Numbered from the stretch's first letter, positions 2,488-60,974 are shown. The stretch: 64,000 nt of DNA from an uncultured Oligoflexia bacterium (GCA_964549505.1 CAZJVD010000005.1:64618-128617), one strand, 5' to 3'. The notes: a model not told the origin generated them from the letters alone. A program made the numbers and translations.

Positions 2488-2556
2488 GAACCTGTCCGCC
2501 AAGAACTTCCCTTTCCGAACATTCCAAGCTACACAGAAAAAAGAGGACCCCCCATC

Positions 2557-31414: not shown

Positions 31415-32062
31415 TCAATCCTCTTTCAACTCGGTCACGACGCGGTTGGAAATCTCATCTCGATCGTCACTACGCCTTGGAAAATAACGAGCGAGCTTCT
31501 CACCGGTGTTGAGTACAGCCGTTTCAATGGCCTTTGGAAGATCCTTGTTAAGACCCTTTCCCAAAAGACGAATCTCATCGTTCCAATACTCAGTACCTAC
31601 CTTTTCGTGAATTCCACGGTCCGCCAGAATCTCCACTCTTCGTTCCAGTAAGGACACGTACAAGAGAACAGCCGCGCGATCGCGGGTTTCGAAAAGACCG
31701 AGGGTCGCAAACTGTTCGAGACAGGCTCGGTGTACAACCTCACGTGCCCAATGATCCCACACCAACCAACGCCTGAACGCCGGAATGACAGGAAGAACAG
31801 ATCCAATGGCAGCGCCCACGGTCTGAAAAATCAAGAGGCCACGAACACCCGCGTCCCAAAACAGGTTCTGTCCCGCCAGTAAAAAAATTCCTGAACCCAA
31901 AATAAAGCCAAGGAAAGCTGAAAACCAGTACGAGAACATGTAGTGGCTGCTGGCACCCACGACTTGCACCACGATCTCACCGCTCGTACGCAGCTCCGCC
32001 TTTTGAACGGCTGCTTCAATAATCGCAAGCTCTGCTTCCGAAAACACACGCTTCTTTACCAT
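31415..32062 (-). CDS. TPM-domain (formerly DUF477) membrane protein
   Basis: Start taken at MVKKRVFSEAELAIIEAAVQKAELRTSGEIVVQVV, a TPM-like N-terminus. The ATGGTAA overlap with the upstream TPM gene indicates translational coupling. Confidence 0.65.
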   Translation of the reverse strand: MVKKRVFSEAELAIIEAAVQKAELRTSGEIVVQVVGASSHYMFSYWFSAFLGFILGSGIFLLAGQNLFWDAGVRGLLIFQTVGAAIGSVLPVIPAFRRWLVWDHWAREVVHRACLEQFATLGLFETRDRAAVLLYVSLLERRVEILADRGIHEKVGTEYWNDEIRLLGKGLNKDLPKAIETAVLNTGEKLARYFPRRSDDRDEISNRVVTELKED

Positions 32063-32838
32063 CGCGACGACGCCCCTCCTCCACCAAAACCTCCGCCAAA
32101 ACCTCCACCCCCGAACCCGCCGCCTCCGAATCCACCGCCCCATCCCCCACCACCCGGACCTCGTCGGCCCCAACCGAAACCTGTTCTGGGCTGAAGACGC
32201 GAACCAGTGAAAATGCGAAGGACGAGAAAGAAGATCAACAAGAAGAAGAACCATCCCATTCCAGAAAATCGCACCGTCTTACGAGGCGACGTCCGAGCAC
32301 CACCCTCAGTCGGTACCCCAAGTTTCTCGGCCATCGCCTCCAGACCAGCGACGACAGCCTGACCGCGGTACCCGTTACGCAAGAGCGGTACGATGTGATC
32401 GGACAGAATACGCTTTGCTTCCACGTCGGTAATGAATTCTTCAAGCCCGTAGCCGACCTCGAGTCGGAGCGCGCGGTCGGAGGGAACCACGACCAACACA
32501 AAACCACGATCGGACTTCTTGTCGCCCAGCTTCCAGGCGTCAGCGACCTTGATCGCGAACTCTTCGACGGACATGCCACGCGTGTCGGCCGCGATCAGCA
32601 CGACACCTTGTGCGTTCGCACGTTCACGCAGCTCGGTTAAAGTCGACACAATGGCGGAACGATCGCCACCCGAAAGCCACGCGATCTCCTCCACCACAGG
32701 GCCGGTCATAGGACCTATGACACTTGGAACCGGCGGCTGATCGGCGAGTGCAAGCGCACTCAGAAACACCCACGCGCCGCACAGGCCCCATATTCTGCAC
32801 CACATTCTATTGATGAACCTAGCGCCCCTTTGTACCAA
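32056..32838 (-). CDS. TPM-domain protein (YgcG-like) with a C-terminal transmembrane segment and a Gly-rich (GGGFGGG)n tail
   Basis: A signal peptide, then SVIGPMTGPVVEEIAWLS..VVLIAADTRGMSVEEFAIKVADAWKLGDKKSDRGFVLVVV (TPM core). The tail is GWGRRGPGGGGWGGGFGGGGFGGGGFGGG. Confidence 0.75.
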   Translation of the reverse strand: MVQRGARFINRMWCRIWGLCGAWVFLSALALADQPPVPSVIGPMTGPVVEEIAWLSGGDRSAIVSTLTELRERANAQGVVLIAADTRGMSVEEFAIKVADAWKLGDKKSDRGFVLVVVPSDRALRLEVGYGLEEFITDVEAKRILSDHIVPLLRNGYRGQAVVAGLEAMAEKLGVPTEGGARTSPRKTVRFSGMGWFFFLLIFFLVLRIFTGSRLQPRTGFGWGRRGPGGGGWGGGFGGGGFGGGGFGGGFGGGGASSRW

Positions 32839-33438
32839 CTAAAACGCCACTTTCGGTGCCTGAGCAGCTCCCTGCTCCGCTGAAAAAGACTCGCGTACAT
32901 TCAAATGTAGAAGATATTTTGCTGTGAGATTCGTCGGAAAGTGACGAACCAGTTCGTTGTACTCCTTGATGGACTCAGCAAAGCGAACGCGCGCCACATT
33001 GATACGATTCTCAGTTCCTTCTAATTGTGCCTGGAGATCCCGAAAGTTCTCGTTAGCTTTGAGATCGGGATACTTCTCGACCACAACCAAAAGACGGCCG
33101 AGAGCTGAGCTCACGCTCGACTGAGCATCCGTATACTTCTTGATCGCCGCCGGATCTCCGACTTGCTCGGCTCGAAGGCCACCACCGCTGGTCGCCTGAA
33201 GCGCTTTGGTGCGCGCTTCCATCACCGCCGTAAGCGTATCTTTTTCATGCTTGGCGTAACCTTTTACGGTTTCCACAAGATTGGGGATCAAATCAAAACG
33301 GCGTTGGTAAGCAGCTTCGACGGTGGACCACGACTGTTTGACGGCTTCGTCGGCTGATTGCAAACGATTGTACCCACAACCACTTAAGATAACGAGTGCA
33401 GCAAACACACTCAGAGACAGCAGTTTCTTTGTTTTCAT
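32839..33438 (-). CDS. lemA: LemA-family protein
   Basis: MKTKKLLSLSVFAALVILSGCGYNRLQSADEAVKQSWSTVEAAYQRRFDLIPNLVETVKGYAKHEKDT is the LemA signature. The LemA then TPM-family gene order is classic. Confidence 0.85.
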   Translation of the reverse strand: MKTKKLLSLSVFAALVILSGCGYNRLQSADEAVKQSWSTVEAAYQRRFDLIPNLVETVKGYAKHEKDTLTAVMEARTKALQATSGGGLRAEQVGDPAAIKKYTDAQSSVSSALGRLLVVVEKYPDLKANENFRDLQAQLEGTENRINVARVRFAESIKEYNELVRHFPTNLTAKYLLHLNVRESFSAEQGAAQAPKVAF

Positions 33439-33474: not shown

Positions 33475-36400
33475 TTAATCTTCGGGGTTTGCGCGCAGAC
33501 TCTCGGCGAGTTCGTCGTACAGAGCGCGCTGCCACGAAAGCAGGGCTTCAGGCTTCACGGCTTTTGCTTCTTGCGAAGCCACGCTGCGGTACCCATGGCG
33601 CCAAGCTGCACGCGCTAAAAACAGATGAACCGCATCGGCATACTTTGGATTTTTTTCCGCGACCTTCAGCAGTGGAGCCGCGGTCCAAGGATCACCCAGA
33701 GCCAGTCGCATAAACCCTATCAGGAAACTTCGGTCTTCGAGGGACTCATTTGAGTACGCTACGTACTCCGCTGCTGCCCATCCGCCTTTTTGAATGAACT
33801 GATAGACCTTATTAAGTCCCGAGGTCTTTTTCCCTTCGCGTTCGGCTTTTTCGAAGGCCGCTTCGAGCGCGAAGAGATCGTCCGCTTGATCTGGAACGTC
33901 TGGAAAGCACGGCATCTGATCGCACAGCGGTGGCTTCGCCTTTTCCAGAGGTGGCATGTAAACGAGTTGCTCGCGTTCGCGATCACAAACATTCTTTTCT
34001 TGATTGTAGATCGACTTCATCTCGACAATCTTTGAGTCGATCTTCTTTACAAAGTCCGGCCACTGTTTACTTTCAATGACGGGGCTCTTCATGAAAACAA
34101 GTCGGTCCACTGCATCTTTCTGAATCTTTGCAGCGGCGCAAAGGGCTGTGATTGTCACCTGAGGAACACCGGTATTGAGAAACTTTTTGAGCTCGTCCTT
34201 GCTGGCACCCAGATCTTTGAGTGTTTCAGCGACACGATCGAGTCGCGATCGAAGCTGTTGTGCTGCCGGACCACTGTCGGATGCTGGTTTACGATCGTTC
34301 GCCCATTTTGCTGACGGGAGCTTACTCACATCGAGGCCACTCTCCATCACGCGCATCCAAAGAGGCTGGAGAACACCCACGCCTCGAAGCGTTTCGGCGT
34401 TGGCCTGCAGATAAACCTTGATCTCGTCGTACACGGGATGCTTATCCCGAAGTGTTTGGAGATAAACATCGCGCATCAGAATCCACACCGGCGCTTCAGC
34501 TTTCTTTGGATCCAGGAGCGGCTTCAAAGACGCCCATGCCGATTGATAGATCTTGTTCCAATAGTACATCCGCGCGATGGTAAGACGGTTCTTTGACTCA
34601 AAGAGAAAGGGAGCTTTCCGTTCAAGGAGAATCGCGATCTGCTCTTTCGTCTTCTTGGGTTCGTAGTAGCTTCCGTACAACAGCATGGCTTCCCAACGAA
34701 TAAGATCGTGCTTGGGATGATCGGGATACACAGCAAGTCCCTGCACTAAGGCATCCGCGCGATGGACCATCTGTCCGAGGCTCTCCCATGCTTTTGCTTC
34801 TTGCATGAAAATTTGAAACACGAGTTCCGATGAATTCTTATCGAGACCCGGGCGCGCAACGCCAGAGGCCTTGAACCGTTCGAGCTCCTTGAAAAATTCT
34901 TCTGATTCGGCTGGCAACTTATACGTGACCAAAAGGTTGTGCCAACTCTTCACCGTCACATCAGATGCAGTGCTAGAGCCCGTAGCTCGTGCGTACCATG
35001 CCCTTGCCTCGACCGAGTTCTTTGCCTTCTCTTCTTTGAAAGCAGCCTGGAAGGCCGCTTCCTGACGAATGCTTTTAACTTGTTTCAGGAACTCTGCGCT
35101 CTTTGCATCGCCCTTCTTAGAGACGATTTCGGCGACAGCGTCGGAGGATAGGAATGCTTCTCTCCACTGCTCGTCTTTATACAAGCGCTTGTTATGCGAA
35201 AAAAACTGTTCTTCGTGGTGCTTGTCCACTCCATCGCGATCGAAGAGCATCACGAGAACGTTACGCGCACGCTCAAACTGCGAAGCGTAAAACAGCGACT
35301 CAAGAACCAGAAACTCAGCAAGGGTCTTATCTTTCGACTTTGGAAACTGCTGAATATACCACTCGGCACCTTCAGCGACTTTCACGTAATCGTCCGCGCC
35401 GACTCCCTTTTGGTTCGCCAACTTCTGCGATACTTCCTTGAGAAGCCGAAGAACACTCAACGCAGCATCGTCACGGTTTTCGTAGCCTTGAATCTCAGCC
35501 GCGCGACGATACCAGGCCAACGCATCGACGGTTTGCTTGAGTTGTTCCTTGCGTTGCGCCCCGTAGTACCAGAGATGACCCTCTTTAGAGTTAGGATAGT
35601 GACTGAGAAACGAAGCGTACAGTTCGTCCGTGGCTTTCCAGATATCGCGATCGTCGGTCTTCTTCGCTTCTTTGTGAATCGTCAGAAGAAGTGCCACGAT
35701 CTTGCTTTCGAGATCGTCGCCCTCTTTGCTGTCCTTCGGAAGTTTCGGCAGATACTCTTTGAGAGCAAGTGGCATCAGCTCTCGTTTGCCAGCGGCCAAT
35801 AGTGTGTAGAGCAACTCGTTCATCCAGAGGTACGAACGCGTGTCGCTCGGAGTTTTGAGCAAGATACTCCACACGGATATCGAGTCTTCAAATCGTCCGA
35901 TTTTTTTGTAGACCAACGCGAGACGTTCACGAGCCCGAATTTTGTCATCCGCTGTCCACCCAAAAATTTCGAGTTCTTGAAGCGCATCTTTGAAGCTGGC
36001 CTGCTCTGCCAACATCATGAGCATGTCCTGTCGCGCCTCGCGCGCTAAACTACCCGGAAGATCCGCTTGGTCACGATGACGTTGATAGTGAAGCACAAGA
36101 CGCTCGAGGTGACGAAGAGCAGCCCACTTCTTTTCCTGGTTGTAGAGAACCCACGATGCCTTGTAGACGCCATACGCCGACTTTTCGGGGTTGCCCAGTT
36201 GGGCAAGCAATCGATAGTTCACGATGGCTTTCTCAAAGTTTGCATCGTCAAAGTAGTAGTCCGCTAAGATCTGAAAAACGTCGGCGCGGTACACCCCATT
36301 GGGATAGAGCTCGCTGAACCTGTTTAAGAACGGAATCGCCTCGCGCGTTTTCGTCTGTTCCCACAAGCAAGCAATATAGAGGAAGGCAGCGTCTTCCGGT

Positions 36401-37638
36401 AAGGACGCTCTTCCTTTTTCAACCATGGCATTAATGATGGGTCTAAGAAGATTCTCGGCGATTCGAAGCGCTTCCTGAGACTGCGTCTTGTACTTGGTCG
36501 GGTCTTCGACACGATAGACGCTGGCCAGATGCCAGTGAAGTTCCGCGCCCAGGTGCACGACCGCTCCGTCGCGCGCTGAATCGGGTATCCTTTTGTAGAG
36601 ATCCACAAGCTTCGAAAGGGCCCCGAGACGTGTCTTAAAATCCCCAGTTGCCGCTTGCTTGTCGACATAGTGGTCAAATCCAGTTTCAACTAAGAACTTT
36701 TCTCGCAGCACTTCAAGAGCGTTTGGAACAAGTGCGTGTTCAGCCCGCGCGAAAGCTCGTTCTTTATCGCCGCTCCGCGAGAGCGTGAAAGCTTCGATGA
36801 GCGCGAGCTCACCTCGCTCACCGTCACGCATACGCTTTTCAACATCGTGAGCGGCATCCAACGCGCGTGTCAACTCCTCCGTACGTGTGTGCGTTCCCAA
36901 GGCGAGTAAAGACCAAAGACGTCCGAGCGATGCAGCAGGTGCGAAGGCCGAGTTTTCAGGAATCGCTTCAAAGTAGACGAGCGCTTCATCGAATCGCTTC
37001 TTTTGGTAGTAGGCGCGACCCAGTAAAATGTACGCTAACTCACGCCACAGTTCGTACGGGCCAACTGTCCCGACATACAACTGAGCGGGAGCGCCCGAAC
37101 CACCCGAAACATAAAGAGGATCAAAGCGTGACTCGGACAGGAGAAGCTCAAGGTTCTCAATGACGACGTCGGCTTTTCCTTCGAACTCGTGATCAAGCGC
37201 TTCAAGGGTCACACGCACGGGGTAGTCCGGGCTCTGCTTGCCAATCGGCCAGGACTTTAGCGCCTTCTTGAGAGTGTCGGTTGTATCGAGCCAAGTCGCC
37301 AGATCCGACATCTGAAGGGGGCGGACGATCTCTGCTACTTTTTCTGGTGCGTTTTCTGTCACTCTTTTCGCCACCGTGTTCGAAGGCGCCGCTGACGAGA
37401 CCACCGACGGATAGACCTCGGGTTTGTTAGCTGGCTTTGTGACGGGTTTTGCGCCCTTTGAAATCTTTTTCTGAACGGTCTTTTTCTGAGAATTTTGCTT
37501 TGGCGCCGGCTTTACAGGTCGTTTCGCTGCCGATTTTGCTTTTGCCTTGCTGACGGGCTTCGCCGCATGCACGCTCGAAAGCGATAGACTCACGGCAACG
37601 GCCATAGCTGCTACGACGCCGGCGAGACACCTCATCAC
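33475..37638 (-). CDS. giant (1387 aa) secreted TPR-repeat protein with a Lys/Ala/Pro-rich N-terminal region
   Basis: Signal peptide AMAVAVSLSLSSVHA, then KPVSKAKAKSAAKRPVKPAPK. It shows TPR-like periodicity throughout (LG/AY/YY helical hairpins). Its start overlaps the stop of the GYF-PilZ gene by 4 bp. Confidence 0.6.
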   Translation of the reverse strand: MMRCLAGVVAAMAVAVSLSLSSVHAAKPVSKAKAKSAAKRPVKPAPKQNSQKKTVQKKISKGAKPVTKPANKPEVYPSVVSSAAPSNTVAKRVTENAPEKVAEIVRPLQMSDLATWLDTTDTLKKALKSWPIGKQSPDYPVRVTLEALDHEFEGKADVVIENLELLLSESRFDPLYVSGGSGAPAQLYVGTVGPYELWRELAYILLGRAYYQKKRFDEALVYFEAIPENSAFAPAASLGRLWSLLALGTHTRTEELTRALDAAHDVEKRMRDGERGELALIEAFTLSRSGDKERAFARAEHALVPNALEVLREKFLVETGFDHYVDKQAATGDFKTRLGALSKLVDLYKRIPDSARDGAVVHLGAELHWHLASVYRVEDPTKYKTQSQEALRIAENLLRPIINAMVEKGRASLPEDAAFLYIACLWEQTKTREAIPFLNRFSELYPNGVYRADVFQILADYYFDDANFEKAIVNYRLLAQLGNPEKSAYGVYKASWVLYNQEKKWAALRHLERLVLHYQRHRDQADLPGSLAREARQDMLMMLAEQASFKDALQELEIFGWTADDKIRARERLALVYKKIGRFEDSISVWSILLKTPSDTRSYLWMNELLYTLLAAGKRELMPLALKEYLPKLPKDSKEGDDLESKIVALLLTIHKEAKKTDDRDIWKATDELYASFLSHYPNSKEGHLWYYGAQRKEQLKQTVDALAWYRRAAEIQGYENRDDAALSVLRLLKEVSQKLANQKGVGADDYVKVAEGAEWYIQQFPKSKDKTLAEFLVLESLFYASQFERARNVLVMLFDRDGVDKHHEEQFFSHNKRLYKDEQWREAFLSSDAVAEIVSKKGDAKSAEFLKQVKSIRQEAAFQAAFKEEKAKNSVEARAWYARATGSSTASDVTVKSWHNLLVTYKLPAESEEFFKELERFKASGVARPGLDKNSSELVFQIFMQEAKAWESLGQMVHRADALVQGLAVYPDHPKHDLIRWEAMLLYGSYYEPKKTKEQIAILLERKAPFLFESKNRLTIARMYYWNKIYQSAWASLKPLLDPKKAEAPVWILMRDVYLQTLRDKHPVYDEIKVYLQANAETLRGVGVLQPLWMRVMESGLDVSKLPSAKWANDRKPASDSGPAAQQLRSRLDRVAETLKDLGASKDELKKFLNTGVPQVTITALCAAAKIQKDAVDRLVFMKSPVIESKQWPDFVKKIDSKIVEMKSIYNQEKNVCDREREQLVYMPPLEKAKPPLCDQMPCFPDVPDQADDLFALEAAFEKAEREGKKTSGLNKVYQFIQKGGWAAAEYVAYSNESLEDRSFLIGFMRLALGDPWTAAPLLKVAEKNPKYADAVHLFLARAAWRHGYRSVASQEAKAVKPEALLSWQRALYDELAESLRANPED

Positions 37639-38519
37639 GCCACCTCCCTTGTCGCTCGCGGTGCGTGCGCAAGTTCGTGCATGACAAACTCGGCAATCTG
37701 CCTGCGTAGCTTCGGACTCATACGGAGAAAGAATAAGCCAACACCCTTCTTGCCATCGTGATTGAGCACACGAATCACAACTGTCGAAACCGAGAATGTT
37801 CCGATGCCAGGGACACCCCGAAGCGTGACAACAAGCTCCTCTCCTTTTTCAAAAGGATCCTTCTCGTCCAAAAGAACGAAGACACCCTTTTCGGAGATAT
37901 CCGCACACCGCGCTGTGATCACACGTTTATGGTCGTGCAGAATAATCGGAACTTCGAGTGGAACACGCGGGTAACGGCGATAGTTGTTTTCTGTCGTGTA
38001 CTCACCGGGCTGGCGTGGTTCAGGACGTGGCTCAGGACGCGATTCGATGCGCTGGTGTGGTCGAACGGCGGGTTCAGGCCGAACAGGTTGGCGGCGTTGA
38101 ACTGTTTGGGGCACCTTTTGGGCCACCGTTTGCGGCGCTGGTTGTGGAGTCGGTCGAACAACGGGTTTTGAAACAGGTTTTGCCGCTGCTTTTGCCACAG
38201 GCGGCGGGGCAGTAACGGGCGCCGGAGACGACGCAGGCTTCGCGGGTTTAAAGCTCGGAGCGGGCGGAACAGGAACACTCAAAGTCGGTGGTCGCTTCTC
38301 CAGATTCTCGGTGAAGTCGACAACCTCAAAAATTCGTTTCCAGCTCTTCTCACCCGTCTGGGCCCAGAGAGAACAGTAGATAAACTCGTCAAAACGCAGC
38401 GTTCCCGCGCTCAACCGGCTTTGAATATCCTCGGTCCTATAAGGACCAACAGGATCTCCGGATTCCGAATCTGGCAGATACCAGCGTTTCTTTGGAGGTT
38501 TTTTTGATGTTGAGTCCAT
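37635..38519 (-). CDS. GYF_2 (DUF4339)-domain plus PilZ-domain protein with a Pro-rich linker; putative c-di-GMP receptor
   Basis: N-terminus WYLPDSESGDPVGPYRTEDIQSRLSAGTLRFDEFIYCSLWAQTGEKSWKRI (GYF_2 pattern). C-terminus RRYPRV (RxxxR) and DISEKGVFV (DxSxxG) PilZ motifs. Confidence 0.7.
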   Translation of the reverse strand: MDSTSKKPPKKRWYLPDSESGDPVGPYRTEDIQSRLSAGTLRFDEFIYCSLWAQTGEKSWKRIFEVVDFTENLEKRPPTLSVPVPPAPSFKPAKPASSPAPVTAPPPVAKAAAKPVSKPVVRPTPQPAPQTVAQKVPQTVQRRQPVRPEPAVRPHQRIESRPEPRPEPRQPGEYTTENNYRRYPRVPLEVPIILHDHKRVITARCADISEKGVFVLLDEKDPFEKGEELVVTLRGVPGIGTFSVSTVVIRVLNHDGKKGVGLFFLRMSPKLRRQIAEFVMHELAHAPRATREVA

Positions 38520-38701: not shown

Positions 38702-40303
38702 ATGAGGGACTTCCGAGGACTCTTCTTCATTATTGGTATCGCTTCATTACCCGCGCTGGGTGGCGCCGGGTTCCGCCTTGCGTCCGCCGCCGACGCGAGC
38801 TTCGGTTTTTACTTCGACACGAAAACACAGCGCTACTTTGCGAGCAACGTGTCGCGCTTCCTCTCCCGCTCTGGAAAGAACCCAAACATGGGGTTGCTTG
38901 AAGTGAGTGTCAACGGCAGCGCCTTTGAGACATTTGACGGTACGATCGACTTTGGTGAAGAAGGAAACTATGAAGTTCGTTTCCGAACCCCCGACACAAA
39001 GCTGAGCTGGACGCCTGTCCAAGAGTTCAGCGTTTGGGTGGACCTCACCCCTCCGGAAAGTGCACCGACCTGGCAGGGCGCAGTTTTTGAACGGGACGGA
39101 AAGACGTTCGTCACAAGTAAGTCGGCTCTGACCGTTCAGGCTCAAGACAATCTGTCCGGAGTGAAAAATATCTTTTGGAAGAAAAAAGAAGGACCGGCTG
39201 TTTTCCCTGCCAAACTACAGTTTCAAAAAGAAGGGCCCGTTGAGATCGAAGTTGCTGCCCGTGATTTTGTCGGCAATACAGAAGCCTTCTACCCTGTGCG
39301 CTTCGTCGTCGACAACACGGCTCCCGAAACATCTGCAGTGATTGAGGGCAAATCTCAAGACACGCAAGCGGGGCGCTTTATGGCGCGCGGAAGTCGTATC
39401 ACGCTCAAGGCTCGAGATGACGCTTCGGGCGCTGCACGCACCGAGTATCAGATCGGCAATGGACCCGTGACAGAATTTACGGCACCACTCCTGATCACCG
39501 AAAATAAAATGGAGCTCAAGTTTCGCTCGGTCGACAATGTCCAGAACGAGGAAGCTTGGAAAACGCTCTCCGTTCTTCAGGATAGCACTCCGCCGACGCT
39601 TGCTCTCAAACGTCAGGGACAGTTTATCGCTTTTGCAGGACGCACCTACGCAAAACCAGGATTCAAGTTAGCGCCCAGCGCTTCAGATCAAGGTAGCGGC
39701 CTTGAGCGGATCACTTACGCCTTAAACAAAGCTGGATTTCGAACACTCGAGAGCTCGGCTCTGGAGTTTCGTGACCCCGGTATCTTCGAAATTCGAATCG
39801 TTGCGCGTGACCGCATTGGCAACGAGGCAGAGAGCAGTCCAACGACCGTCGTGATCGACAACCAAGCTCCCGTCACAGAGCTCATCACGCAGCAAGCGTC
39901 CACAGACAAAGAAGGTGTTCTCCACACTCAGATTCCAAACCGAATTGAATTCGAGGCAAAAGACACAGGTATCGGCCTTGAACGCATCGAGTACAGTTAC
40001 GACGGTTCCGAATACAGCACATTTTCAAAACCCATCGACCTCAGTCTCTGGGAAACGTCCACACGTACAATGTTTTTTAGATCCGTTGACCGCCTCGGAA
40101 ACACCGAAGCTGCAAAAAAAGTGACGGTTTCCGTGGTCAACACCAAGCCGACCGTGGACCTCTTTGTCGAACAAGCATCCTTGCCGGAAGTTCCACTCTC
40201 GCGCCTGGAAGGCGGAGTGCCGAAAGTGCGTGAGCCGGCGTCCTCAAATCCTCGCGTCAAAGCGAAGTCCGCACCGGTAAAACGCAAAGGAGGTCGCCGA
40301 TGA
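38702..40303 (+). CDS. secreted protein with four tandem ~95-aa Ig-like (Big-type) domains and a basic C-terminal tail
   Basis: Signal peptide LFFIIGIASLPALGGAGF. Repeats are delimited by D(L/N/S)T(P/A)P(E/T), each containing a D-x-SG-x-x-x-I-x-Y motif (DNLSGVKNIFW, DDASGAARTEYQ, DQGSGLERITYA, DTGIGLERIEYS). Confidence 0.55.
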   Translation: MRDFRGLFFIIGIASLPALGGAGFRLASAADASFGFYFDTKTQRYFASNVSRFLSRSGKNPNMGLLEVSVNGSAFETFDGTIDFGEEGNYEVRFRTPDTKLSWTPVQEFSVWVDLTPPESAPTWQGAVFERDGKTFVTSKSALTVQAQDNLSGVKNIFWKKKEGPAVFPAKLQFQKEGPVEIEVAARDFVGNTEAFYPVRFVVDNTAPETSAVIEGKSQDTQAGRFMARGSRITLKARDDASGAARTEYQIGNGPVTEFTAPLLITENKMELKFRSVDNVQNEEAWKTLSVLQDSTPPTLALKRQGQFIAFAGRTYAKPGFKLAPSASDQGSGLERITYALNKAGFRTLESSALEFRDPGIFEIRIVARDRIGNEAESSPTTVVIDNQAPVTELITQQASTDKEGVLHTQIPNRIEFEAKDTGIGLERIEYSYDGSEYSTFSKPIDLSLWETSTRTMFFRSVDRLGNTEAAKKVTVSVVNTKPTVDLFVEQASLPEVPLSRLEGGVPKVREPASSNPRVKAKSAPVKRKGGRR

Positions 40304-40614
40304 GACAGATCCTCCTATCATTCATAATCGGTGTCTTCGCCCTCAGTGTACCACTCGCCGTACAAGCTGCTCCTAAAGCACGCGCGAAGGCCACCGCGTC
40401 TTCCGCCGACAAGAAGAAAAAGGTCATCTACCGCAAGTACACACAGCTCGATTTCACCGGCGAATCCGTACAGGGACAAGCGAAAGCCCCCGAGATTTTC
40501 TACGTCTTTCAACGCCGACGCGCTGGCGGTATCGAAGCTGCTCGCGCTCCCTCGTCGCTCAGCCACCAAAAGACCACGACCTTTAACGAATTGAAAGGAG
40601 CGCTCGTACCATGA
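40300..40614 (+). CDS. small secreted Lys-rich hypothetical protein
   Basis: Signal peptide FIIGVFALSVPLAVQA. ATGA overlaps on both sides indicate translational coupling. Confidence 0.4.
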   Translation: MRQILLSFIIGVFALSVPLAVQAAPKARAKATASSADKKKKVIYRKYTQLDFTGESVQGQAKAPEIFYVFQRRRAGGIEAARAPSSLSHQKTTTFNELKGALVP

Positions 40615-42362
40615 GTGGGCTAGCTCTTTTCTTACGAGATCCGGTCTATAAGTCGGAACGTTTCGTCAGCAGCATTGGAACGCGCTCGGTGGTCGGCAAT
40701 AGCAAAGACGTTCAAATCTTCGTCGACGACATCCGCTGCAGCCCCGTCCACGCACTGCTCGAAGCTCAAGCCGATGGAAACCGTGTGACGGTCATCGATC
40801 TAGGGAGCCGGTTTGGTACCTACACCCAAAAAGGTGCTCGTGTTCAAGAACACACGATCGCCGTTGGCGAGTCGATTGTTATTGGCAGCCAAACGCTCGT
40901 TCTTCGCCCGACACCCAAAGATGATCCGTCTCAAGTCGCCATGAGCGATCGCTCGAAAGCAAAACCTGTCGCCACGGCCAAATCGGGAGACATCGGCCTC
41001 ATCACCGATCGAACCCTTCTTCAAGCCACGCTCTTTTGGGGAGAACAACCGCTCGAGGTACGAACGTTCGAGTCCGGATCTGATCTCACCGTCGGTCCTC
41101 AGAAGCACGCAACCTTCTGTGTGAGCCTCATGGACTCGCGCTTTCACGGCGCACCGTTTGCGATTGCGCACTATGCTCAGAACGAACTTCTCCTGAACGT
41201 TCCGCCTGAAATGTCGGGACTCATCTGGGTCGGCCAGGATCCCATAGCGCTGGATACTTTACGCAATAAGGCTCCTCCAACACGTGACAATCCAGAACTC
41301 AAAGTCCGACTGCGTCTCGGAGATCGTGCGGAACTGCATCTCGGCGAACTGACGCTCAGTTTCGTGTTCGTCAATCCGTCTGAGAAAATCCCGACTCCGG
41401 TCTTTCGAGTGACGGACCAGATCCTTCTGCGCGTTTTTATATTCATGATGGCATTTTACGGGCTTGTTTTTGTCGCTCTCAACGCCATCACACCGGAGGA
41501 AGAGCCAACCACACTCAAAGATGTTCCGAAACATCTCAAACGCGTGGTCATGGATGCCGGTATTGCGCAGGCCATGAAAAAACAACGTGCCGCAATCGGT
41601 GAGCTCGCGATGAATAACGAAGGCGGACGCGCGCGCGGAGAAGAAGGACGCGCTAAGGCGGAAAACAATCCTCGTGAAGCCGAAGCTCAACAGAACAAGG
41701 CGATGCAGCAAAAAGCGTTGCCCAAAAAAGCTGGCGATACGAAAGTTGCACAACAGCAAGAACAAGAGGCTGATCTCGATCTGGATGCGGCATTCAACAG
41801 CACGACGAAGAAGGCCCTTTCGGGCAGCGTCTCCGTGGTCGGAAAGCGCAGCGACGGTAACACCGCAACGGCACTTGCCGACGGCGGTTTTGCGCGCGGC
41901 CGCGTAGGCGAAGGAAGCGGTGGCGGCGGACAGAGTGTGGGTATAGGAGCGCTCAGCGGGCTCAGTACCGGCGGCGGCATGGGATCAGGAGACTACGGTC
42001 TCAGTCCTTCGAAAGGTCGCGAAATCAAAATTCCTGAAGGCGAAGAACTCGTGATTCTCGGTGGATTGGACCCCGATGTCATCGCGAGCATTATAAAACG
42101 TTACCTGCCGCAGATTCGTCACTGTTATGAAACTCAGCTCAGTCAGAACTCGCATCTTAAAGGCAAGGTCGGCGTGTCGTTTGTGATCGGACCGAACGGT
42201 AACGTTCAGAACGCAACGATCTATGAAAGCTCTCTGAACGAGCGCAACACAGAGGCGTGCATCATCAGTAAAGTTAAAGGCTGGAATTTTCCTAAACCAC
42301 GAGGTGGGGGAACCGTCGGCGTACGGTATCCGTTCCTCCTCATGTCCACACAGGACAAGTAA
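40611..42362 (+). CDS. FHA-domain / single-transmembrane / TonB C-terminal-domain protein (TonB- or TolA-like energy transducer with a cytoplasmic FHA head)
   Basis: The N-terminal FHA block is RSVVGNSKDVQIFVDDIRCSPVHALLEAQADGNRVTVIDLGSRFGTYTQKG. The transmembrane segment is ILLRVFIFMMAFYGLVFVALNAI. A Lys/Gln/Glu-rich linker follows. The C-terminal KGKVGVSFVIGPNGNVQNATIYESSLNERNTEACIISKVKGWNFPKP matches the TonB_C fold. Confidence 0.7.
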   Translation: MSGLALFLRDPVYKSERFVSSIGTRSVVGNSKDVQIFVDDIRCSPVHALLEAQADGNRVTVIDLGSRFGTYTQKGARVQEHTIAVGESIVIGSQTLVLRPTPKDDPSQVAMSDRSKAKPVATAKSGDIGLITDRTLLQATLFWGEQPLEVRTFESGSDLTVGPQKHATFCVSLMDSRFHGAPFAIAHYAQNELLLNVPPEMSGLIWVGQDPIALDTLRNKAPPTRDNPELKVRLRLGDRAELHLGELTLSFVFVNPSEKIPTPVFRVTDQILLRVFIFMMAFYGLVFVALNAITPEEEPTTLKDVPKHLKRVVMDAGIAQAMKKQRAAIGELAMNNEGGRARGEEGRAKAENNPREAEAQQNKAMQQKALPKKAGDTKVAQQQEQEADLDLDAAFNSTTKKALSGSVSVVGKRSDGNTATALADGGFARGRVGEGSGGGGQSVGIGALSGLSTGGGMGSGDYGLSPSKGREIKIPEGEELVILGGLDPDVIASIIKRYLPQIRHCYETQLSQNSHLKGKVGVSFVIGPNGNVQNATIYESSLNERNTEACIISKVKGWNFPKPRGGGTVGVRYPFLLMSTQDK

Positions 42363-42380: not shown

Positions 42381-43448
42381 ATGGATAAACTGATTACATA
42401 CTTCCAAGAAGGCGGGCTGATCATGTGGCCGGTCCTTATTCTGTTGATCATCGGCTGGACGGTGATCGCGGAACGGATCTACATGGTTCTGTTTGTTTAC
42501 AACGCCGATGGGGCCATGCTGATGCAGAAGCTTCAGCGGCTGATCCTCGATAACAATCTTAACGAAGCGATCAAGCTCTGTAACAGCAACAAGAAAGCTG
42601 CCGTTTATCAAGTGCTCAAGGCAGCACTCGTCAACGCGGACCGACCTTTCGAAGAACTTCAAGGGCATGTTGAAGTCGCGACTCTAGGCGTTGTTCCCAA
42701 GCTTCAACATCGGATGACCTACTTGTTCTCGATTGCGAACACCGCAACCCTCATCGGTCTTTTAGGAACGGTTGTCGGTCTGATCGAAACGTTCGGTGCC
42801 GTCGCCGTGGTCGAAGGATCACAGAAACAGGAGATGATCTCAGGCGGTATCGCAACCGCTCTGAACGCAACGGCGTTTGGTCTCTTTGTCGCGATTCCGT
42901 GTATGCTCGCGTACGGATTTCTATACAACCGCATCAACGGTGTTATCGATGATGTTGAGCACTATTCAGCCCGACTTTTGATGCTGTTGCGCACCGGCCG
43001 CGAGTACTTCGAAAACTATACTGTCGATAAGACTGTTTCGACGGAACAGCGCCCAAAAATGGCGAAGAAGAAGTCCCCTATTCCGCCTTCTCTAGGCGGT
43101 GGAGCCGCGGCTCGAGCACCAGCCCCAGCTCGCCCCAAGGCTCAGGCCCGTCCAGTCGCACAGCCCGTTCGGGGCGGCACCAATCCGTCGATCGCTCGCG
43201 GTTACACACACTCTGGGATCCATGCAGCGCCTCATCTCGCTCAGCCTCCGGTTTCACCACCTGTTGTCGAGGAAACGGCCGACGAGCAGCTGGAGGAAAC
43301 AGGTACGTACGTTGAACGCGACGATGTCGGATACCACACCGTAGGTGCCAGCGCGGATGACGCGGTCGAGGCACAGGAGCAGGAACAAGTCGACGAAGCT
43401 TACGAAGATGGCGGCGAAGACAGCGGAGACGACGAGAATGCAGCGTAA
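42381..43448 (+). CDS. MotA/TolQ/ExbB-family proton channel with a ~140-aa Pro/Ala-rich then strongly acidic C-terminal tail
   Basis: LIMWPVLILLIIGW..LFSIANTATLIGLLGTVVGLIETF..GIATALNATAFGLFVAIPCMLAYGFLYNRI are the TolQ/ExbB motifs. The tail ends ..EEQLEETGTYVERDD..EAQEQEQVDEAYEDGGEDSGDDENAA. Confidence 0.85.
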   Translation: MDKLITYFQEGGLIMWPVLILLIIGWTVIAERIYMVLFVYNADGAMLMQKLQRLILDNNLNEAIKLCNSNKKAAVYQVLKAALVNADRPFEELQGHVEVATLGVVPKLQHRMTYLFSIANTATLIGLLGTVVGLIETFGAVAVVEGSQKQEMISGGIATALNATAFGLFVAIPCMLAYGFLYNRINGVIDDVEHYSARLLMLLRTGREYFENYTVDKTVSTEQRPKMAKKKSPIPPSLGGGAAARAPAPARPKAQARPVAQPVRGGTNPSIARGYTHSGIHAAPHLAQPPVSPPVVEETADEQLEETGTYVERDDVGYHTVGASADDAVEAQEQEQVDEAYEDGGEDSGDDENAA

Positions 43449-44061
43449 ACGCAAAGAAATGATGCAGAGTGAGCTGACCATCATCTCCTTGATGGACGTG
43501 CTCACGACCCTGCTCTTCTTCTTGCTCGCAACTTCGTCTTTTTCGCAATTTGCGATCCTGACAGCGTCATCGATGTCTCAGAGTGCGTCTCCTCCCAAGG
43601 AAGACAAGCCGAAGTTCAGTCTTCAGATCGCGATGAGCTCGCCGAATGATGTTGCGATCTTTCTGGGTCCCGCGGCGAAACTTCCGATTCGTGACAAGGC
43701 CCGGCTCTATCAGTACCTGTCTCAGAATTTTAAGGGCAATGAGAACATCGGGTGGGTTCGTCAGATTCGCGGCCCTCAAGCACGTGAGGTTCTCGCCCGC
43801 GTACAGGAGACACTGAAGGTGATCAAACTTGGCTTTCCTCACGAAAACCAAGCGGTCGTGGTTTTTGCCGATCCCGTGCCCTATCAGGAAACCATTGAGG
43901 CGATCTCCGCCGTACGATCGTTGCCGGATACCGATCCTGGCTTTCGAATGGATAAGCTCACAGGGGGTTCCGAGCTCACACGCGTCCTTTTTCCTGAGAT
44001 CGTTGTGTCTGAAATGGAAGGCGATCTCCGCGTCGCCGGTCGACCCATGGGTAAGTCGTGA
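43438..44061 (+). CDS. ExbD/TolR-family protein (paralogue 1, extended C-terminus)
   Basis: MQRKRKEMMQSELTIISLMDVLTTLLFFLL is the ExbD N-terminal transmembrane signature. Its start overlaps the tolQ-like stop by 11 bp. Confidence 0.7.
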   Translation: MQRKRKEMMQSELTIISLMDVLTTLLFFLLATSSFSQFAILTASSMSQSASPPKEDKPKFSLQIAMSSPNDVAIFLGPAAKLPIRDKARLYQYLSQNFKGNENIGWVRQIRGPQAREVLARVQETLKVIKLGFPHENQAVVVFADPVPYQETIEAISAVRSLPDTDPGFRMDKLTGGSELTRVLFPEIVVSEMEGDLRVAGRPMGKS

Positions 44062-44615
44062 TGAGAAAGAAAAGCCTGATCAAGAGCACGCGCGGCCATC
44101 GTCATCATCCTGAGATGAGCATGAATATTACGGCCCTGATGGACATTCTCACGGTTTTGCTCTTCTTCTTGATCAAGAGCTACAACGTGTCGGCCTCGTC
44201 GTTGACACCGCCAAAGGACATCACGCTTCCAAAATCGCGTACCGAAGACAAAGCCGAGCAGTCGATCGTATTAGCCATCACAAAGACTGCTGTACTCCTG
44301 AATAATGACCCGATCGCCCAGCTGCAACAAGGCAACTTCGCTCGCCGTGACATTGCCGGAGACAACCGAACCGTTCTACCGATCAAAAAAATTCTCGATC
44401 AAGAGCAGAAAAAGCGCCTTGCGATCTACAAAGACGAAGGCAATCTCAGCTTCCTGCCACCGGGTAAGATCCTGATCCAGGCCGACTATAAGCTACCCTT
44501 TAACGTCCTGAAGTATCTCTTGCACACGGCTGCGATCAGCGGTTACTCCGACTATCAATTCGTTATCCAAAACGTGTCGCCAGGACCTGCTCCCGCCTCT
44601 GTTCCCAAAAAGTAA
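44061..44615 (+). CDS. ExbD/TolR-family protein (paralogue 2)
   Basis: MSMNITALMDILTVLLFFLI..SIVLAITKTAVLLNNDPI..NVLKYLLHTAAISGY. A 1-bp TGATG overlap with the previous gene. Confidence 0.7.
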   Translation: MRKKSLIKSTRGHRHHPEMSMNITALMDILTVLLFFLIKSYNVSASSLTPPKDITLPKSRTEDKAEQSIVLAITKTAVLLNNDPIAQLQQGNFARRDIAGDNRTVLPIKKILDQEQKKRLAIYKDEGNLSFLPPGKILIQADYKLPFNVLKYLLHTAAISGYSDYQFVIQNVSPGPAPASVPKK

Positions 44616-44717: not shown

Positions 44718-45560
44718 TTGAATGTGTTTCTTATCGCTTATGTGGGTAGGGAGTTTAAATTTGGAGCCAGAGAGTTGAACGCGCTCCGGGCCACGTTGTT
44801 TGGCCTGTTGTTCGCACTCGGTCAGACGTTGTTCGTTGTAAGCGGTTGGTGCGATCCCACTGAGAACGGCCTGCGTGCTTTGTCTGGTGGACCACCGCCG
44901 GGACGCGATCCGATTGTCCCGCAGGACCTCATCGCTGAGATCCGGCACTCACTACCTGAAAGCAAACTAAAGCTCGAACTCGAACGCATCGAGGAAACGC
45001 TCGATACGTTGCCAGCTAGCTTTGCGGAAGGCGAAGGACCAGCGCTTGAGAAACACCTCGGACGTCGGTTTGCCGAGACGCTTTTGAGGGCCCGCGTCCT
45101 TGATGCGATGGACATCGGTACGGCGGCAGCTGCAGAAGAGCAGCGTGAGAATGCTCGCGAGATCCTTCGAACGGCCCTTGCGGTAGCGATCCGTACCCAG
45201 TACGGACTGGACCGCCTCGCCGATAGCTTTAACTCCAAGCGACTTTTGGCCTACATGTTGGTCGAAGTGTTTACCGTTTCCGTCGCCATTATAGGCTCGA
45301 ACTACTACAAAGAAGTGGGAACCCTTCAGTCGCTGGTGCTCGCCCAGGCCATCGCTCTTGCGGCGATCTTGCCGGTACGCTGGTTCTTTCGAACCGTTAA
45401 GGTCTCACGGATGGATGCCCTGATGGATCACTTCTGGAAAGGTGTGAACGAACGAGGTCTTGAGATTCCCGATCGAAAGACATTTCTGAGAGAAACCCTC
45501 GGCATCCCGGAAGGCACTACTAATTGCCAGATTCTTTTAGGTCTCCGAAAACCCAGCTGA
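44718..45560 (+). CDS. hypothetical secreted protein (periplasmic, unknown function)
   Basis: The track start at 44718 is a TTG. A signal-peptide-like LNALRATLFGLLFALGQTLFVVSGWC begins about 44775 after a GGAGCCAGAGAG stretch. I recognised no domain. Confidence 0.4.
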   Translation: MNVFLIAYVGREFKFGARELNALRATLFGLLFALGQTLFVVSGWCDPTENGLRALSGGPPPGRDPIVPQDLIAEIRHSLPESKLKLELERIEETLDTLPASFAEGEGPALEKHLGRRFAETLLRARVLDAMDIGTAAAAEEQRENAREILRTALAVAIRTQYGLDRLADSFNSKRLLAYMLVEVFTVSVAIIGSNYYKEVGTLQSLVLAQAIALAAILPVRWFFRTVKVSRMDALMDHFWKGVNERGLEIPDRKTFLRETLGIPEGTTNCQILLGLRKPS

Positions 45561-45645
45561 ACGGGTGTCAAATAGACAGGTCCCGGAAACCCTGGCGAAA
45601 ACTGGCGCTTAGGTTCGATTTTTTACATGATATTGATTTAATAAA

Positions 45646-46917
45646 TTGTGGTATATACGGCGCGGTATGATTGCGTTGTTACTGTCTCTCCTTTTCACTC
45701 CACCAAGCCACGCCATCACACCTGTACGCATTTTCTATCTCCCGCTCTGGAGCCTGGTTCACGAAGACGTCCTCATTGATCGAGGGACTCGCCAGACCGA
45801 GGGCGCCGGCTGCACACGTTATCAATCCACGCTTCCAGGTCGCGCCGATCTTGGAAAGGGAGTGCTCCATCTCTGCCCCTGGTCGATCGATTATGTCATG
45901 GCCCTCGTGATCGCGGACTTCCTCTCACTCGACACGCGCTACTTCGGACACCCCGTGTTTCTACAAAGGGACGATCAGGTCCTTCGTGGCTTTTGGACCC
46001 CTATCCTCCCGCTGCTACGTGAGTCGCCTGAGGGGTCGCTGAGCGACCGTGCTCAGGCTGTTCAGAGCCTCACTCTTCGCACCAAGATCGAGATGATAGG
46101 ACAGATGCTTCTCTTGGGAGTCACGGGTCTCGATTCCTTCTGGGAGAACGAAGCTCCCCTTCAGGACCTCTTCGTCAAACCGCGTACCGCAGGACCCGAA
46201 CTTGTTTCTTTTACGATGACCCGACCTCGGTTCAACCGTATTCGCAGTGGAACAACGGACCCGGTAGAAGCTGGCAAACAATGGGCAAAAGATGCGGCCA
46301 GGGCGCTCAGCACCATTCAGTCGCTACTGCGCGATTCCAAGTTTCGTGAATCGCCAGAGTTCTTCGCACTGCGAAGACTCTTCAAGCGTCTCAGGCAGCT
46401 GCCTCAGCTCTTCGATGCCGACTCACCGATTCGGGACCTCGTTGACCGATGGAGCCAAGCTGCGGCGACTGAGCCGGGGGTAGTCTCCAGCTTCGAACTG
46501 AACGACACGGGGCAAGCCAGCTCCAGACGAGAAGCGACCTTTCCGTCATCAGATGAGGTCGTCACCGCCCAGTCGATCCAGGCAGAATACCGGGACTACG
46601 TAACGAAGTTTGCAAAAGCTGCTGAAACCGGCTTTGCACACGCATTCGACCTGGAAATATTTCCAGAAAGAGATTTTTTACAAGGTCTCACTTCGGAGAT
46701 TTCACAAAAGGCTCTTTGGACACTCAACAACCATGTCATGACATTTAGCACTGATCATCGTGGCGGCTCTGCCGAACTGCAACGACTTTGGCTCTCGATA
46801 CCCGATCGGCATTCGCATGCCATCAACCCCGAAGCCTGGACGACATTGCGCGCTCAAGCCAAGTGCGACGCCCGTCTCAAACCTCATCAAACGGGGCAGA
46901 AAACCCCAGAAGCATGA
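45646..46917 (+). CDS. hypothetical secreted protein
   Basis: Signal peptide MIALLLSLLFTPPSHA. 423 aa. No recognised domain. Confidence 0.45.
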   Translation: MWYIRRGMIALLLSLLFTPPSHAITPVRIFYLPLWSLVHEDVLIDRGTRQTEGAGCTRYQSTLPGRADLGKGVLHLCPWSIDYVMALVIADFLSLDTRYFGHPVFLQRDDQVLRGFWTPILPLLRESPEGSLSDRAQAVQSLTLRTKIEMIGQMLLLGVTGLDSFWENEAPLQDLFVKPRTAGPELVSFTMTRPRFNRIRSGTTDPVEAGKQWAKDAARALSTIQSLLRDSKFRESPEFFALRRLFKRLRQLPQLFDADSPIRDLVDRWSQAAATEPGVVSSFELNDTGQASSRREATFPSSDEVVTAQSIQAEYRDYVTKFAKAAETGFAHAFDLEIFPERDFLQGLTSEISQKALWTLNNHVMTFSTDHRGGSAELQRLWLSIPDRHSHAINPEAWTTLRAQAKCDARLKPHQTGQKTPEA

Positions 46918-47954
46918 ACGTCTCCCGGAGTGTCCTGGGCAGTTTCTTTCTCTCGGCTCTAGCCGGTTGTTTCACGTACTCAGAACCTGCTCGCCACCCG
47001 CAGATCGACGCTTATCTCATCAGAGAGTACGGGACCTCGGACTTACAAAAAACCCATTCACAGTACGCTGTATTTGAGACCGATGGCCCTAATGAGTTTC
47101 TAGAACTGGCGATCACACTCGCCGAGTTTCCTCGGGAACGCTTCCGCGTCGAACGGCCCGAAACGGGTAATGTGAAGATAGCGGTCAAACTTCTCGGCCA
47201 CTCGGATGCTGCGATCGATCAGTTTCGAGAAAGGCATGTCGCGAGCTCGGGACACCTGTTCGACATCACACCCGACATCTACTGCTACAAAGTGAACGAC
47301 GACGCCTCCAAGATCGCTGGCGTCTGCATCTATGAAGTGGTGGTCCTCATCCCAGAGACCTCAAACACGGCCGTCTCGATCAACGGTGAACGCGTGATGC
47401 GTCCCGCTGAAGTGTGGACTCGATCCGACCTCAAAGCTCGTCTCGCAAACCTTCTACCATCCGAAACGACCGAGCAGATCTTCGCGATCTATGTCGAATC
47501 GCAACGCGCAAAGCGCTTTCTCACGATGAACGATGTTCTCGAGACGATCGCTTGGATCGCAGCGGCTCCTTCACGATCGATGGACTCGACACCGTGGCGA
47601 ACCGTTATCGATCGTCTGACGGGTCATGTGACGGATCCTGAGAACAGTTTCCGTGCTGTCGTGCGGAAGTTAACAGACGATCCCGCGATGATCTTCCCCG
47701 TCGTTCCGTTCGTAGAGGCGTTCTCGGAACGTGGTTATCCTGTGCCATGGAGGGATGTGACCGACCTTATCAACACAATCGACCTGACACAGGCGTCGCT
47801 TCCGCTCATTGGAACCGCTCTCGGAACGTATCCGGACGACGGTCCGATCATCTCAGCAAACGATTTGGAAGCTCTTATGGCCGTGGAACGCAGGCGCCCT
47901 CAAGGACAAATGGAAACGATCCAACGCCTACTCGGGCATCGAGTCCTACGGTAG
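46914..47954 (+). CDS. hypothetical lipoprotein
   Basis: Start taken at MNVSRSVLGSFFLSALAGCF (lipobox LAGC). This ATG overlaps the upstream stop (ATGA). The track ORF from 46788 would overlap the previous gene by 130 bp. Confidence 0.5.
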   Translation: MNVSRSVLGSFFLSALAGCFTYSEPARHPQIDAYLIREYGTSDLQKTHSQYAVFETDGPNEFLELAITLAEFPRERFRVERPETGNVKIAVKLLGHSDAAIDQFRERHVASSGHLFDITPDIYCYKVNDDASKIAGVCIYEVVVLIPETSNTAVSINGERVMRPAEVWTRSDLKARLANLLPSETTEQIFAIYVESQRAKRFLTMNDVLETIAWIAAAPSRSMDSTPWRTVIDRLTGHVTDPENSFRAVVRKLTDDPAMIFPVVPFVEAFSERGYPVPWRDVTDLINTIDLTQASLPLIGTALGTYPDDGPIISANDLEALMAVERRRPQGQMETIQRLLGHRVLR

Positions 47955-48761: not shown

Positions 48762-48766
48762 GATCG

Positions 48767-49600: not shown

Positions 49601-49692
49601 GATTTCCCCCCGAGGAAATGAAAAGATCCTTTACCCAAATATGTCCATGTAAGCCTACGCGTACCCACGCGCACACTCATTGCCTTACTGTC

Positions 49693-50757: not shown

Positions 50758-50766
50758 GATGTCCCC

Positions 50767-52885: not shown

Positions 52886-52950
52886 GGAGTGATCCTTTCC
52901 CACGTACCGATCTAAAGTCATAGATCATTTATTAGATTGTTGTCCAGGAT

Positions 52951-56165: not shown

Positions 56166-56178
56166 TCAGGCTTTTACG

Positions 56179-60828: not shown

Positions 60829-60974
60829 TGCCACTAAAAGCGTTCAGCTCACGTATAGCCCCTGGCCAGTGTCTAAGCCTTAGACGGGCGAAAAAAGGCA
60901 TTACGCCTTCGGGACAGGTTTTATCTGCTTTGGTCGCGGCAAGAACTTTGCTTTGTAGCATCTGGAGGGGAAGA

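Follow-up and report, generated by a model that had tools for sequence, protein, structure and literature searches.

The gene described here lies at positions 37635..38519 on the minus strand of a 64,000-nucleotide (nt) stretch of DNA from an uncultured Oligoflexia bacterium (GCA_964549505.1, CAZJVD010000005.1:64618-128617); the whole stretch is referred to below as the window. Its open reading frame (ORF), with an ATG start, encodes a protein of 294 amino acids (aa) in which a predicted N-terminal GYF_2 domain is joined through a proline-rich linker to a predicted C-terminal PilZ domain. The gene opens a two-cistron unit, the other cistron of which encodes a giant TPR protein, and a divergent glt/agl operon stands opposite, a gliding-cluster context that the original prediction for this DNA omitted. 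We propose, with a probability of roughly 0.55, that the GYF-PilZ protein is the cyclic di-GMP (c-di-GMP) input module, i.e. the second-messenger input, of an Agl-Glt-type gliding machinery, and we regard it as a candidate on/off switch of surface gliding. A c-di-GMP adaptor is proposed because two known cases bracket the protein, namely docking by the GYF domain of GltJ and the action of YcgR and MotI on stators of the MotA family. In public data an identical protein is present on one 194-kb contig.

The PilZ domain, including its C-terminal helix, covers residues 181-285 (37665..37979, minus strand). Pfam PilZ (PF07238) matched residues 181-280 with E=7.5e-16 and 58.8 bits against a cutoff of 22.5, which corresponds to positions 3-101 of the 102 in the profile. 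Translation of the exact coordinates gives the RxxxR motif as RRYPR (R181-R185; 37965..37979, minus strand) and the D/NxSxxG motif as DISEKG (D207-G212; 37884..37901, minus strand), and the extended 'RRxxxR' form is absent, position 180 being Tyr. Both motifs line up residue for residue (RQYPR/RRYPR and DLSDTG/DISEKG) in a phmmer alignment to PA0012, a single-domain PilZ protein whose structure (8u0i) was solved with c-di-GMP. In the AlphaFold 2 (AF2) model the pLDDT score (predicted local distance difference test) is above 90 for PilZ residues 185-285. Foldseek searches with this domain returned 41 PDB matches at E<=1e-3, every one a PilZ domain, including those of MotI/DgrA, BcsA, Alg44 and YcgR with E-values from 4e-7 to 1e-5. 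MotI (5vx6) was the best match both by sequence (3.9e-6, family profile against PDB) and by fold (4e-7). The model and the Foldseek results agree with the PilZ fold, a six-stranded beta-barrel with a C-terminal helix. The motifs named in the original prediction are thus intact, as judged from the Pfam match, the translations, the alignment to PA0012 and the conservation in the family described below, and the domain appears canonical and is predicted to bind c-di-GMP. The N-terminal PilZN (YcgR_N) domain was not matched in the Pfam scan of the protein, whose N-terminus is GYF instead.

The GYF-fold domain spans residues 12-73 (38301..38486, minus strand), where the translation and an AF2 model with pLDDT of about 90 give the order beta-beta-alpha-beta-beta-alpha. 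Scanned against Pfam, the full-length window protein gave no match to GYF_2 (PF14237) at E<=1, and the isolated N-terminus matched positions 1-34 of the 50 in that profile with E=0.023-0.028 and 14.6-14.9 bits, below the cutoff of 25.8. This weak score is likely due to two features seen in the family alignment, the third conserved Trp being Tyr in the window protein and the beta3-beta4 loop being longer by three residues. A homologue of the same architecture (P0002, 34% identical) passes the GYF_2 cutoff with 30.7 bits, and 20 of 20 N-domains of the family match GYF_2, the best at 1.3e-11. When a profile of 56 family sequences was compared with all PDB sequences the top match was 7z3c (E=2.5e-9), a GYF domain structure solved by nuclear magnetic resonance for GltJ/AgmX of Myxococcus xanthus; a smaller profile of 14 sequences matched it with E=2.1e-4. 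Alignment of the N-domain family to the same chain by hhalign gave 97.5% probability and E=7.5e-12 at 24% identity. The AF2 model of residues 7-82 (pLDDT 84.5) has four strands plus helices, and Foldseek placed it with GIGYF2, GltJ, Smy2, GIGYF1 and CD2BP2 as top PDB matches (TM-scores of 0.55-0.62). The top 15 matches were all GYF domains or GYF-like subunits, at modest E-values of 5e-3 and weaker. Despite the failed Pfam cutoff the assignment of residues 12-73 as a GYF domain is solid as a prediction, secured as it is by the homologues, the family profile that leads to the GltJ domain, hhalign and the Foldseek matches of the modelled fold. The original prediction had read a GYF_2-linker-PilZ architecture and had named Pfam and structure prediction as checks on it. 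The two-domain layout is upheld, with PilZ above its Pfam cutoff, confident AF2 models and Foldseek returning GYF domains for the N-terminus and PilZ domains for the C-terminus, but GYF_2 stays below its cutoff on the window sequence alone.

Between the two domains lies a disordered proline-rich linker of about 100 aa (residues 77-180; 37980..38291, minus strand; pLDDT 41-58). Both domains have pLDDT of about 90 in the full-length AF2 model, in which residues 77-181 are disordered, and the proline content is about 30% over the 96 residues that separate the two domain matches. The Pro-rich linker that was predicted is therefore present, its length being about 100 aa and not ~120 aa. It is about 70 aa longer than the linkers of the closest relatives (22-40 aa). 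In close relatives a conserved motif, YPKCxLPKKxSxGL, stands in the linker directly after the GYF domain; the corresponding motif of a distant subfamily is YPK(V/S)PIP, and the GltJ GYF construct continues as APRPSKP. In the window protein (residues 74-85) this proline motif is swapped for the expanded linker, RPPTLSVPVPPAP... The motif might be either a part of the GYF fold or an intramolecular pseudo-ligand. A match of the linker to the NCBIfam GltJ model (E=0.007, residues 76-168) was dismissed as low-complexity similarity in a Pro-rich region.

To see how widespread the fusion is we made an exhaustive family-profile search over 1.84 billion cluster representatives (50% identity clusters), which gave 667 matches with E-values below 1e-3; 150 of them were below 1e-10 and 41 below 1e-30. 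Word-indexed homologue searches had given 3, 14 and 29 proteins, probably because words from the Pro-rich linker saturate the candidate list. Pfam applied to 147 relatives found GYF_2 in 129 and PilZ in 129, and local hidden Markov models of the two domains, run on 160 sequences, assigned 99 as GYF-PilZ, 42 as GYF-GYF-PilZ and one as PilZ preceded by three GYF domains. The architecture, which had been called unusual, is common in environmental data: it occurs in at least 142 clusters at 50% identity, 99 with one GYF_2 domain and 43 with two or three. Relatives with taxonomic labels belong to metagenome-assembled genomes (MAGs) of Bacteriovoracia, Bdellovibrionales and Oligoflexia and are mostly annotated 'hypothetical protein'; a named B. 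bacteriovorus protein was not among the results of any search.

The residues expected to contact the nucleotide are well kept in this family. Among 142 relatives R181 is conserved in 114, R185 in 128, D/N207 in 112, S209 in 122 and G212 in 130, and all five are retained in at least 90. Conservation on this scale, with the two motifs near-invariant in the close family, is what would be expected of a ligand site, and together with the residue-for-residue alignment to c-di-GMP-bound PA0012 it argues against a reading in which the PilZ domain serves for interaction independently of any nucleotide, as in PlpA, the type II PilZ proteins and FlgX, the whole protein being a structural or polarity adaptor. 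Such modules do exist. PlpA of M. xanthus retains the motifs, reportedly does not bind c-di-GMP and regulates gliding reversals, and the tetrameric PilZ protein FlgX is described as stabilising stators (PMC11725899). Within the GYF-PilZ family one member, P0013, has lost RxxxR, and in the alignment 52 of the 142 relatives miss at least one motif residue. Taking both sides together, we find a nucleotide-independent role unlikely for the window protein.

The proposed connection to gliding comes from the operon that runs away from the GYF-PilZ gene on the plus strand. Its first gene (38702..40303) encodes an OmpL47-type multi-barrel or Ig-like surface protein (NCBIfam barrel_OmpL47, 2.4e-53). It is followed by a small GltF/CglF-like protein of 104 aa (40300..40614; NCBIfam gliding_CglF 4.4e-5, below cutoff) and by a GltG-like protein with an FHA domain, a transmembrane segment and an AgmX/PglI TonB-like C-terminal domain (40611..42362; Pfam FHA 3.8e-9). 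The latter matched NCBIfam gliding_GltG with 1.8e-65, below the equivalog cutoff, and myxo_SS_tail with 1.8e-29, above the cutoff. Next come an AglR-like channel of the MotA/TolQ/ExbB type and two ExbD/TolR-like (AglQ/S-like) proteins (42381..44615; Pfam MotA_ExbB 4.6e-26, ExbD 3e-6 and 3e-11). The GltF-like gene has the place ahead of gltG that it also has in M. xanthus and B. bacteriovorus (PMC3169522). By its gene content this is a gliding cluster of the Agl-Glt type from a predatory-type bacterium of the Bdellovibrionota, since its GltF-, GltG- and AglR/Q/S-like genes match the set of M. xanthus and Bdellovibrio (PMC3169522).

A Glt-like core complex does not necessarily serve gliding. The cluster could be a paralogue that serves something other than motility, for instance envelope or polysaccharide transport, predation or an assembly of the spore-coat kind known from Nfs, and the GYF-PilZ protein would then couple that process to c-di-GMP. 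Glt-like paralogues with non-motility roles and core complexes in non-gliders have been described (Luciano et al., PMC3169522), GltA/B/C/H/K homologues were not recognised in the window, and c-di-GMP and PilZ proteins classically control exopolysaccharide machines, BcsA and Alg44 being among our fold matches. In one distant relative (L006, 227-7953, Oligoflexia MAG GCA_016715815.1) genes for polysaccharide modification (ALGX, MBOAT, methyltransferases, glycosyltransferases) lie ahead of the GYF_2-PilZ/TPR pair, and some of these Glt-like clusters might thus have to do with the handling of exopolysaccharide. Yet the GltF/GltG-type matches and the AgmX/PglI tail are specific to the myxobacterial and Bdellovibrio gliding set, and in the proven glider B. 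bacteriovorus the gene set is the same and the operon is headed by a PilZ gene. We consider a non-motility function of the window cluster unlikely.

The second cistron of the GYF-PilZ unit (33475..37635, minus strand) encodes a giant TPR protein of 1386-1387 aa, predicted to be exported, with weak TPR and YbgF matches and a signal-peptide-like N-terminus (MRCLAGVVAAMAVAVSLSLSSVHA, followed by AKP). Similar N-termini were found in 4 of 4 orthologues inspected (L001, L006, L007 and L008), and the window protein is 28-38% identical over about 1250 aa to the product of the gene after GYF-PilZ in five relatives. In size, TPR content, signal peptide and position it agrees, as compared by description, with GltD/AgmU and with Bd1478, the GltD/AgmU counterpart of 1237 aa in B. 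bacteriovorus HD100, and we infer that it is GltD-like. GltD/AgmU has been modelled as the periplasmic pillar of the M. xanthus machine (PMC11761067).

At the junction of the two genes (37632..37648, minus strand) the coding strand reads GGGAGG TGGCGTG ATG A, with the Shine-Dalgarno sequence GGGAGG at 37648-37643, the stop TGA of the GYF-PilZ gene at 37637-37635 and a tandem TGA at 37634-37632. Translation of the TPR protein could start either at ATG 37635, with a 1-nt overlap and the Shine-Dalgarno sequence 7 nt upstream, or at GTG 37638, with a 4-nt overlap. The GYF-PilZ gene hence ends in two in-frame stops, TGA TGA, with the ATG of the TPR gene nested between them. The cistrons do overlap as was originally predicted, while the literal ATGA arises only with the second, in-frame TGA. 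Synteny was compared in the window, the loci L001-L005, L006, L007, L008/L009 and L010, one further contig and L011, with protein identities of 21-46%, and in 11 of 12 contexts, among them Bacteriovoracia, Bdellovibrionales and Oligoflexia MAGs, the GYF_2-PilZ gene is directly followed by a TPR gene coding for 1338-1453 aa, often with a 4-nt ATGA overlap. Overlapping or adjacent junctions occur in L001 (ATGA), L007 (ATGA), L010 (4 nt) and L006 (11 nt), and OmpL47-like, small, GltG-like and MotA_ExbB genes are usually nearby. As these proteins share as little as 21-23% identity with one another, comparison of the sequences indicates that the GYF_2-PilZ/TPR linkage is ancient. The coupling to the giant TPR gene is in this respect real and evolutionarily conserved.

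The original prediction went further and took the overlap to imply co-translation at fixed stoichiometry. Accordingly, the two products would form a physical complex in which the GYF-PilZ protein is a c-di-GMP-gated adaptor of a TPR scaffold. The stop/start overlap with its internal Shine-Dalgarno sequence, the retention of the gene pair across deep divergence and the fact that TPR and GYF are both protein-interaction modules speak for such a complex, but the signal-peptide-like starts of the TPR protein and of the four orthologues inspected, together with the modelled periplasmic placement of the comparable M. xanthus GltD, do not agree with it. In the 294-aa GYF-PilZ protein no hydrophobic N-terminus, transmembrane segment or export signal was found, and because of this we take it, by default, to be cytoplasmic and soluble. 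The two products therefore most likely sit in different compartments, and a cytoplasmic complex between them is unlikely; the fixed-ratio model as a whole we regard as very improbable. Docking of the GYF domain on the Pro/Lys-rich stretch behind the signal peptide of the TPR pre-protein was rejected as well, that stretch being absent from the orthologues. For the operon coupling to the exported TPR protein the best interpretation is that components of one machine are regulated together.

If the GYF-PilZ protein is the second-messenger input of this gliding machine, as we propose, its PilZ domain would sense c-di-GMP, its GYF domain would anchor it on a cytoplasmic, proline-rich segment belonging to the machine or to a scaffold, and the flexible linker would let the PilZ domain reach the motor. 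Upon nucleotide binding the assembly or the activity of the motor would change, in the way that the PilZ proteins YcgR and MotI work on the homologous stator, MotA. AglR is a homologue of MotA and TolQ, and by TolQ topology its C-terminal tail is cytoplasmic. Candidate tethers would be this Pro/Ala-rich tail, the linker of the protein itself in the part of an autoinhibitory pseudo-ligand, or an AglZ-like scaffold whose gene lies elsewhere. The analysis shows the identity of the domains, the integrity and conservation of the motifs, the preserved gene pair and the setting in the cluster, whereas we infer that c-di-GMP is bound, which partner is docked and in what direction gliding would be affected.

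Several known systems are instructive in this regard. The GYF domain of GltJ binds a proline-rich sequence of AglZ via a conserved beta-sheet face and so docks the machine to the cytoplasmic platform, and the linker next to it is gated by MglA-GTP (PMC11135422). The window protein shares with GltJ the bacterial GYF subtype, the four-strand two-helix fold, a flexible linker flanking the GYF domain and the location in an Agl-Glt cluster. GltJ, however, is a membrane protein of 674 aa that contains a zinc ribbon (ZnR), a transmembrane helix and a TonB-like C-terminal domain (TonB_C) and is gated by MglA-GTP, whereas the window protein is predicted to be soluble, lacks all three of these elements and has PilZ instead. 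Orthology to GltJ was rejected, only the GYF part being common.

With YcgR of E. coli and MotI/DgrA/YpfA of B. subtilis the protein has in common a PilZ domain with RxxxR and D/NxSxxG and, by analogy, a link to a proton-driven motor of the MotA/TolQ/ExbB family, here the AglR-like channel. Those proteins act on flagella and carry an N-terminal PilZN (YcgR_N) or a second PilZ-like barrel and no GYF domain, and the window protein, with GYF at its N-terminus, was not assigned to their family. The M. xanthus proteins PlpA, PixA and PixB are PilZ proteins too; they regulate motility reversals, and so modulate gliding as well as type IV pilus motility, in a relative that has the same machine. None of them has a GYF domain (PlpA is a stand-alone PilZ protein, PixA a PilZ-receiver protein and PixB combines a pair of PilZ domains with an acetyltransferase), and they act on the MglA polarity module and are not reported to be encoded with glt genes. 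Similar in operon position is Bd1482 of B. bacteriovorus HD100, from the same phylum, which codes for a PilZ protein at the 5' end of the gliding operon Bd1482-Bd1474 and was proposed in 2012 as the receptor that connects the cyclase DgcA to gliding (PMC3271064). Like the window gene it heads an Agl-Glt-type cluster; the HD100 gene, in contrast, precedes aglR-aglQ-aglS-gltD, while the window gene lies ahead of a gltD-like gene, with the agl genes transcribed divergently.

A number of observations weigh against a c-di-GMP input to gliding. As PlpA illustrates, intact motifs are insufficient for c-di-GMP binding. Gliding of B. bacteriovorus needs 3',3'-cGAMP made by Bd0367 and correlates with mRNA levels of gliding genes (PMC9140294), and this effect is not obviously exerted through a PilZ protein. 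GltA/B/C/K-like genes were not recognised in the window, so that 'gliding' could be replaced by 'Glt-like envelope machine', the window TPR protein was not matched by a GltD model and no family model gave it a name, and in L011 the family member P0189 does not adjoin a TPR gene. The AglR tail, the candidate partner, varies from 9 to 181 aa among relatives with no sequence conservation, and this variation in length weakens the Pro-rich tail as a conserved GYF ligand.

For Bdellovibrio the Agl-Glt machinery is reported in an expanded form, with GltH, I, J and K absent (PMC3169522). It could be speculated that in Bdellovibrionota, a lineage reported to be without GltJ, the GYF-PilZ protein takes over the cytosolic switch role of GltJ, its GYF domain recruiting the cytoplasmic platform. 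A cyclic dinucleotide bound by PilZ, and not MglA-GTP acting on the ZnR-linker, would then gate the Agl-Glt motor, and the family would be the receptor downstream of DgcA. The gating dinucleotide would be c-di-GMP or possibly, given Bd0367/DgcA, 3',3'-cGAMP. We offer this only tentatively and think it unlikely; if true, gliding of the focal-adhesion type would be second-messenger-gated in predatory bacteria.

Some further features of the cluster are worth recording. The OmpL47-type first gene, whose family takes its name from Leptospira, is conserved in L001, L002, L004 and L008, with a related Big/PKD protein in the distant L007 and L010; a protein of this type is not among the Glt components given for M. 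xanthus in the literature consulted. The AglR-like channel (42381-43448, plus strand) has a C-terminal extension of ~130 aa (residues about 225-355) which is Pro/Ala-rich and then strongly acidic. The AglR tails all end in -AA or -VA (DENAA, SHDAA, GQNAA, SEDAA, KKVA) and most members of the GYF-PilZ family likewise end in Ala (EVA, QSA, QTA, KTA and others), which may be a shared C-terminal signal, e.g. a protease degron, or chance. The first ExbD-like ORF is listed mechanically with a GTG start by which it overlaps the AglR gene by 104 nt (region 43345-43450, plus strand). The Pfam ExbD match starts only at its residue 40 and an internal Met-Met lies just past the AglR stop, and translation probably begins close to 43450.

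A second piece of the cluster consists of a gene for a 1549-aa Kelch-repeat protein (56179-60828, plus strand) and the 354-aa ORF that precedes it (stretch 55101-62873). These two are 37-43% identical to the genes directly after ExbD in L001 (1-3246) and L004 (about 1-3640), and since in the window they are about 10.5 kb from the agl genes, the gliding cluster appears, from this comparison, to have been split by inserted DNA. Between the two pieces lie three orphan ORFs (44718-47954), a Liv-type ABC transporter on the minus strand (47964-52921), and one gene each for a VTT-domain and a FecR-domain protein. In the literature consulted no giant Kelch protein is described in a gliding machine. 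On the other side, a LemA gene and two TPM-domain genes (31415-33438, minus strand) follow the TPR gene on the same strand at a distance of 36 nt. In relatives they are not found downstream of the TPR gene, so they probably make up a separate, unrelated operon beside it. A GEMM riboswitch for c-di-GMP or cGAMP upstream of the gene was considered, and an Rfam scan of the window matched zero families; promoter and terminator scans near the GYF-PilZ gene gave background level. GGDEF, EAL and HD-GYP domains were not found in the larger window ORFs scanned. The other genes of the window are housekeeping ones (Suf/Nfu/ferrochelatase, peroxiredoxins, transporters, glycosyltransferases).

Adaptors with a PilZ domain that work on motors of the MotA family are already known, and so is docking by a GYF domain in gliding (GltJ, 2022-2024); what is proposed here is not a new kind of system. 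New are the GYF-PilZ fusion itself, its tight and apparently ancient linkage to a gltD-like gene across Bdellovibrionota, the GltJ-type character of its GYF domain and the conservation of predicted c-di-GMP-binding residues in the GYF_2-PilZ family. In the literature searched no paper joins GYF or DUF4339 with PilZ, and Bd1482 is mentioned only by the 2012 paper (PMC3271064). The cyclase DgcA/Bd0367 is known to control gliding, and the word 'receptor' is never used in the text of the paper that describes this (PMC9140294). In the cyclic-dinucleotide control of gliding in predatory Bdellovibrio-type bacteria the cyclase is thus known, and the GYF-PilZ protein is a concrete candidate for the receptor. 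Its likeness to GltJ suggests an evolutionary story in which the same docking domain has come to serve a different regulatory input.

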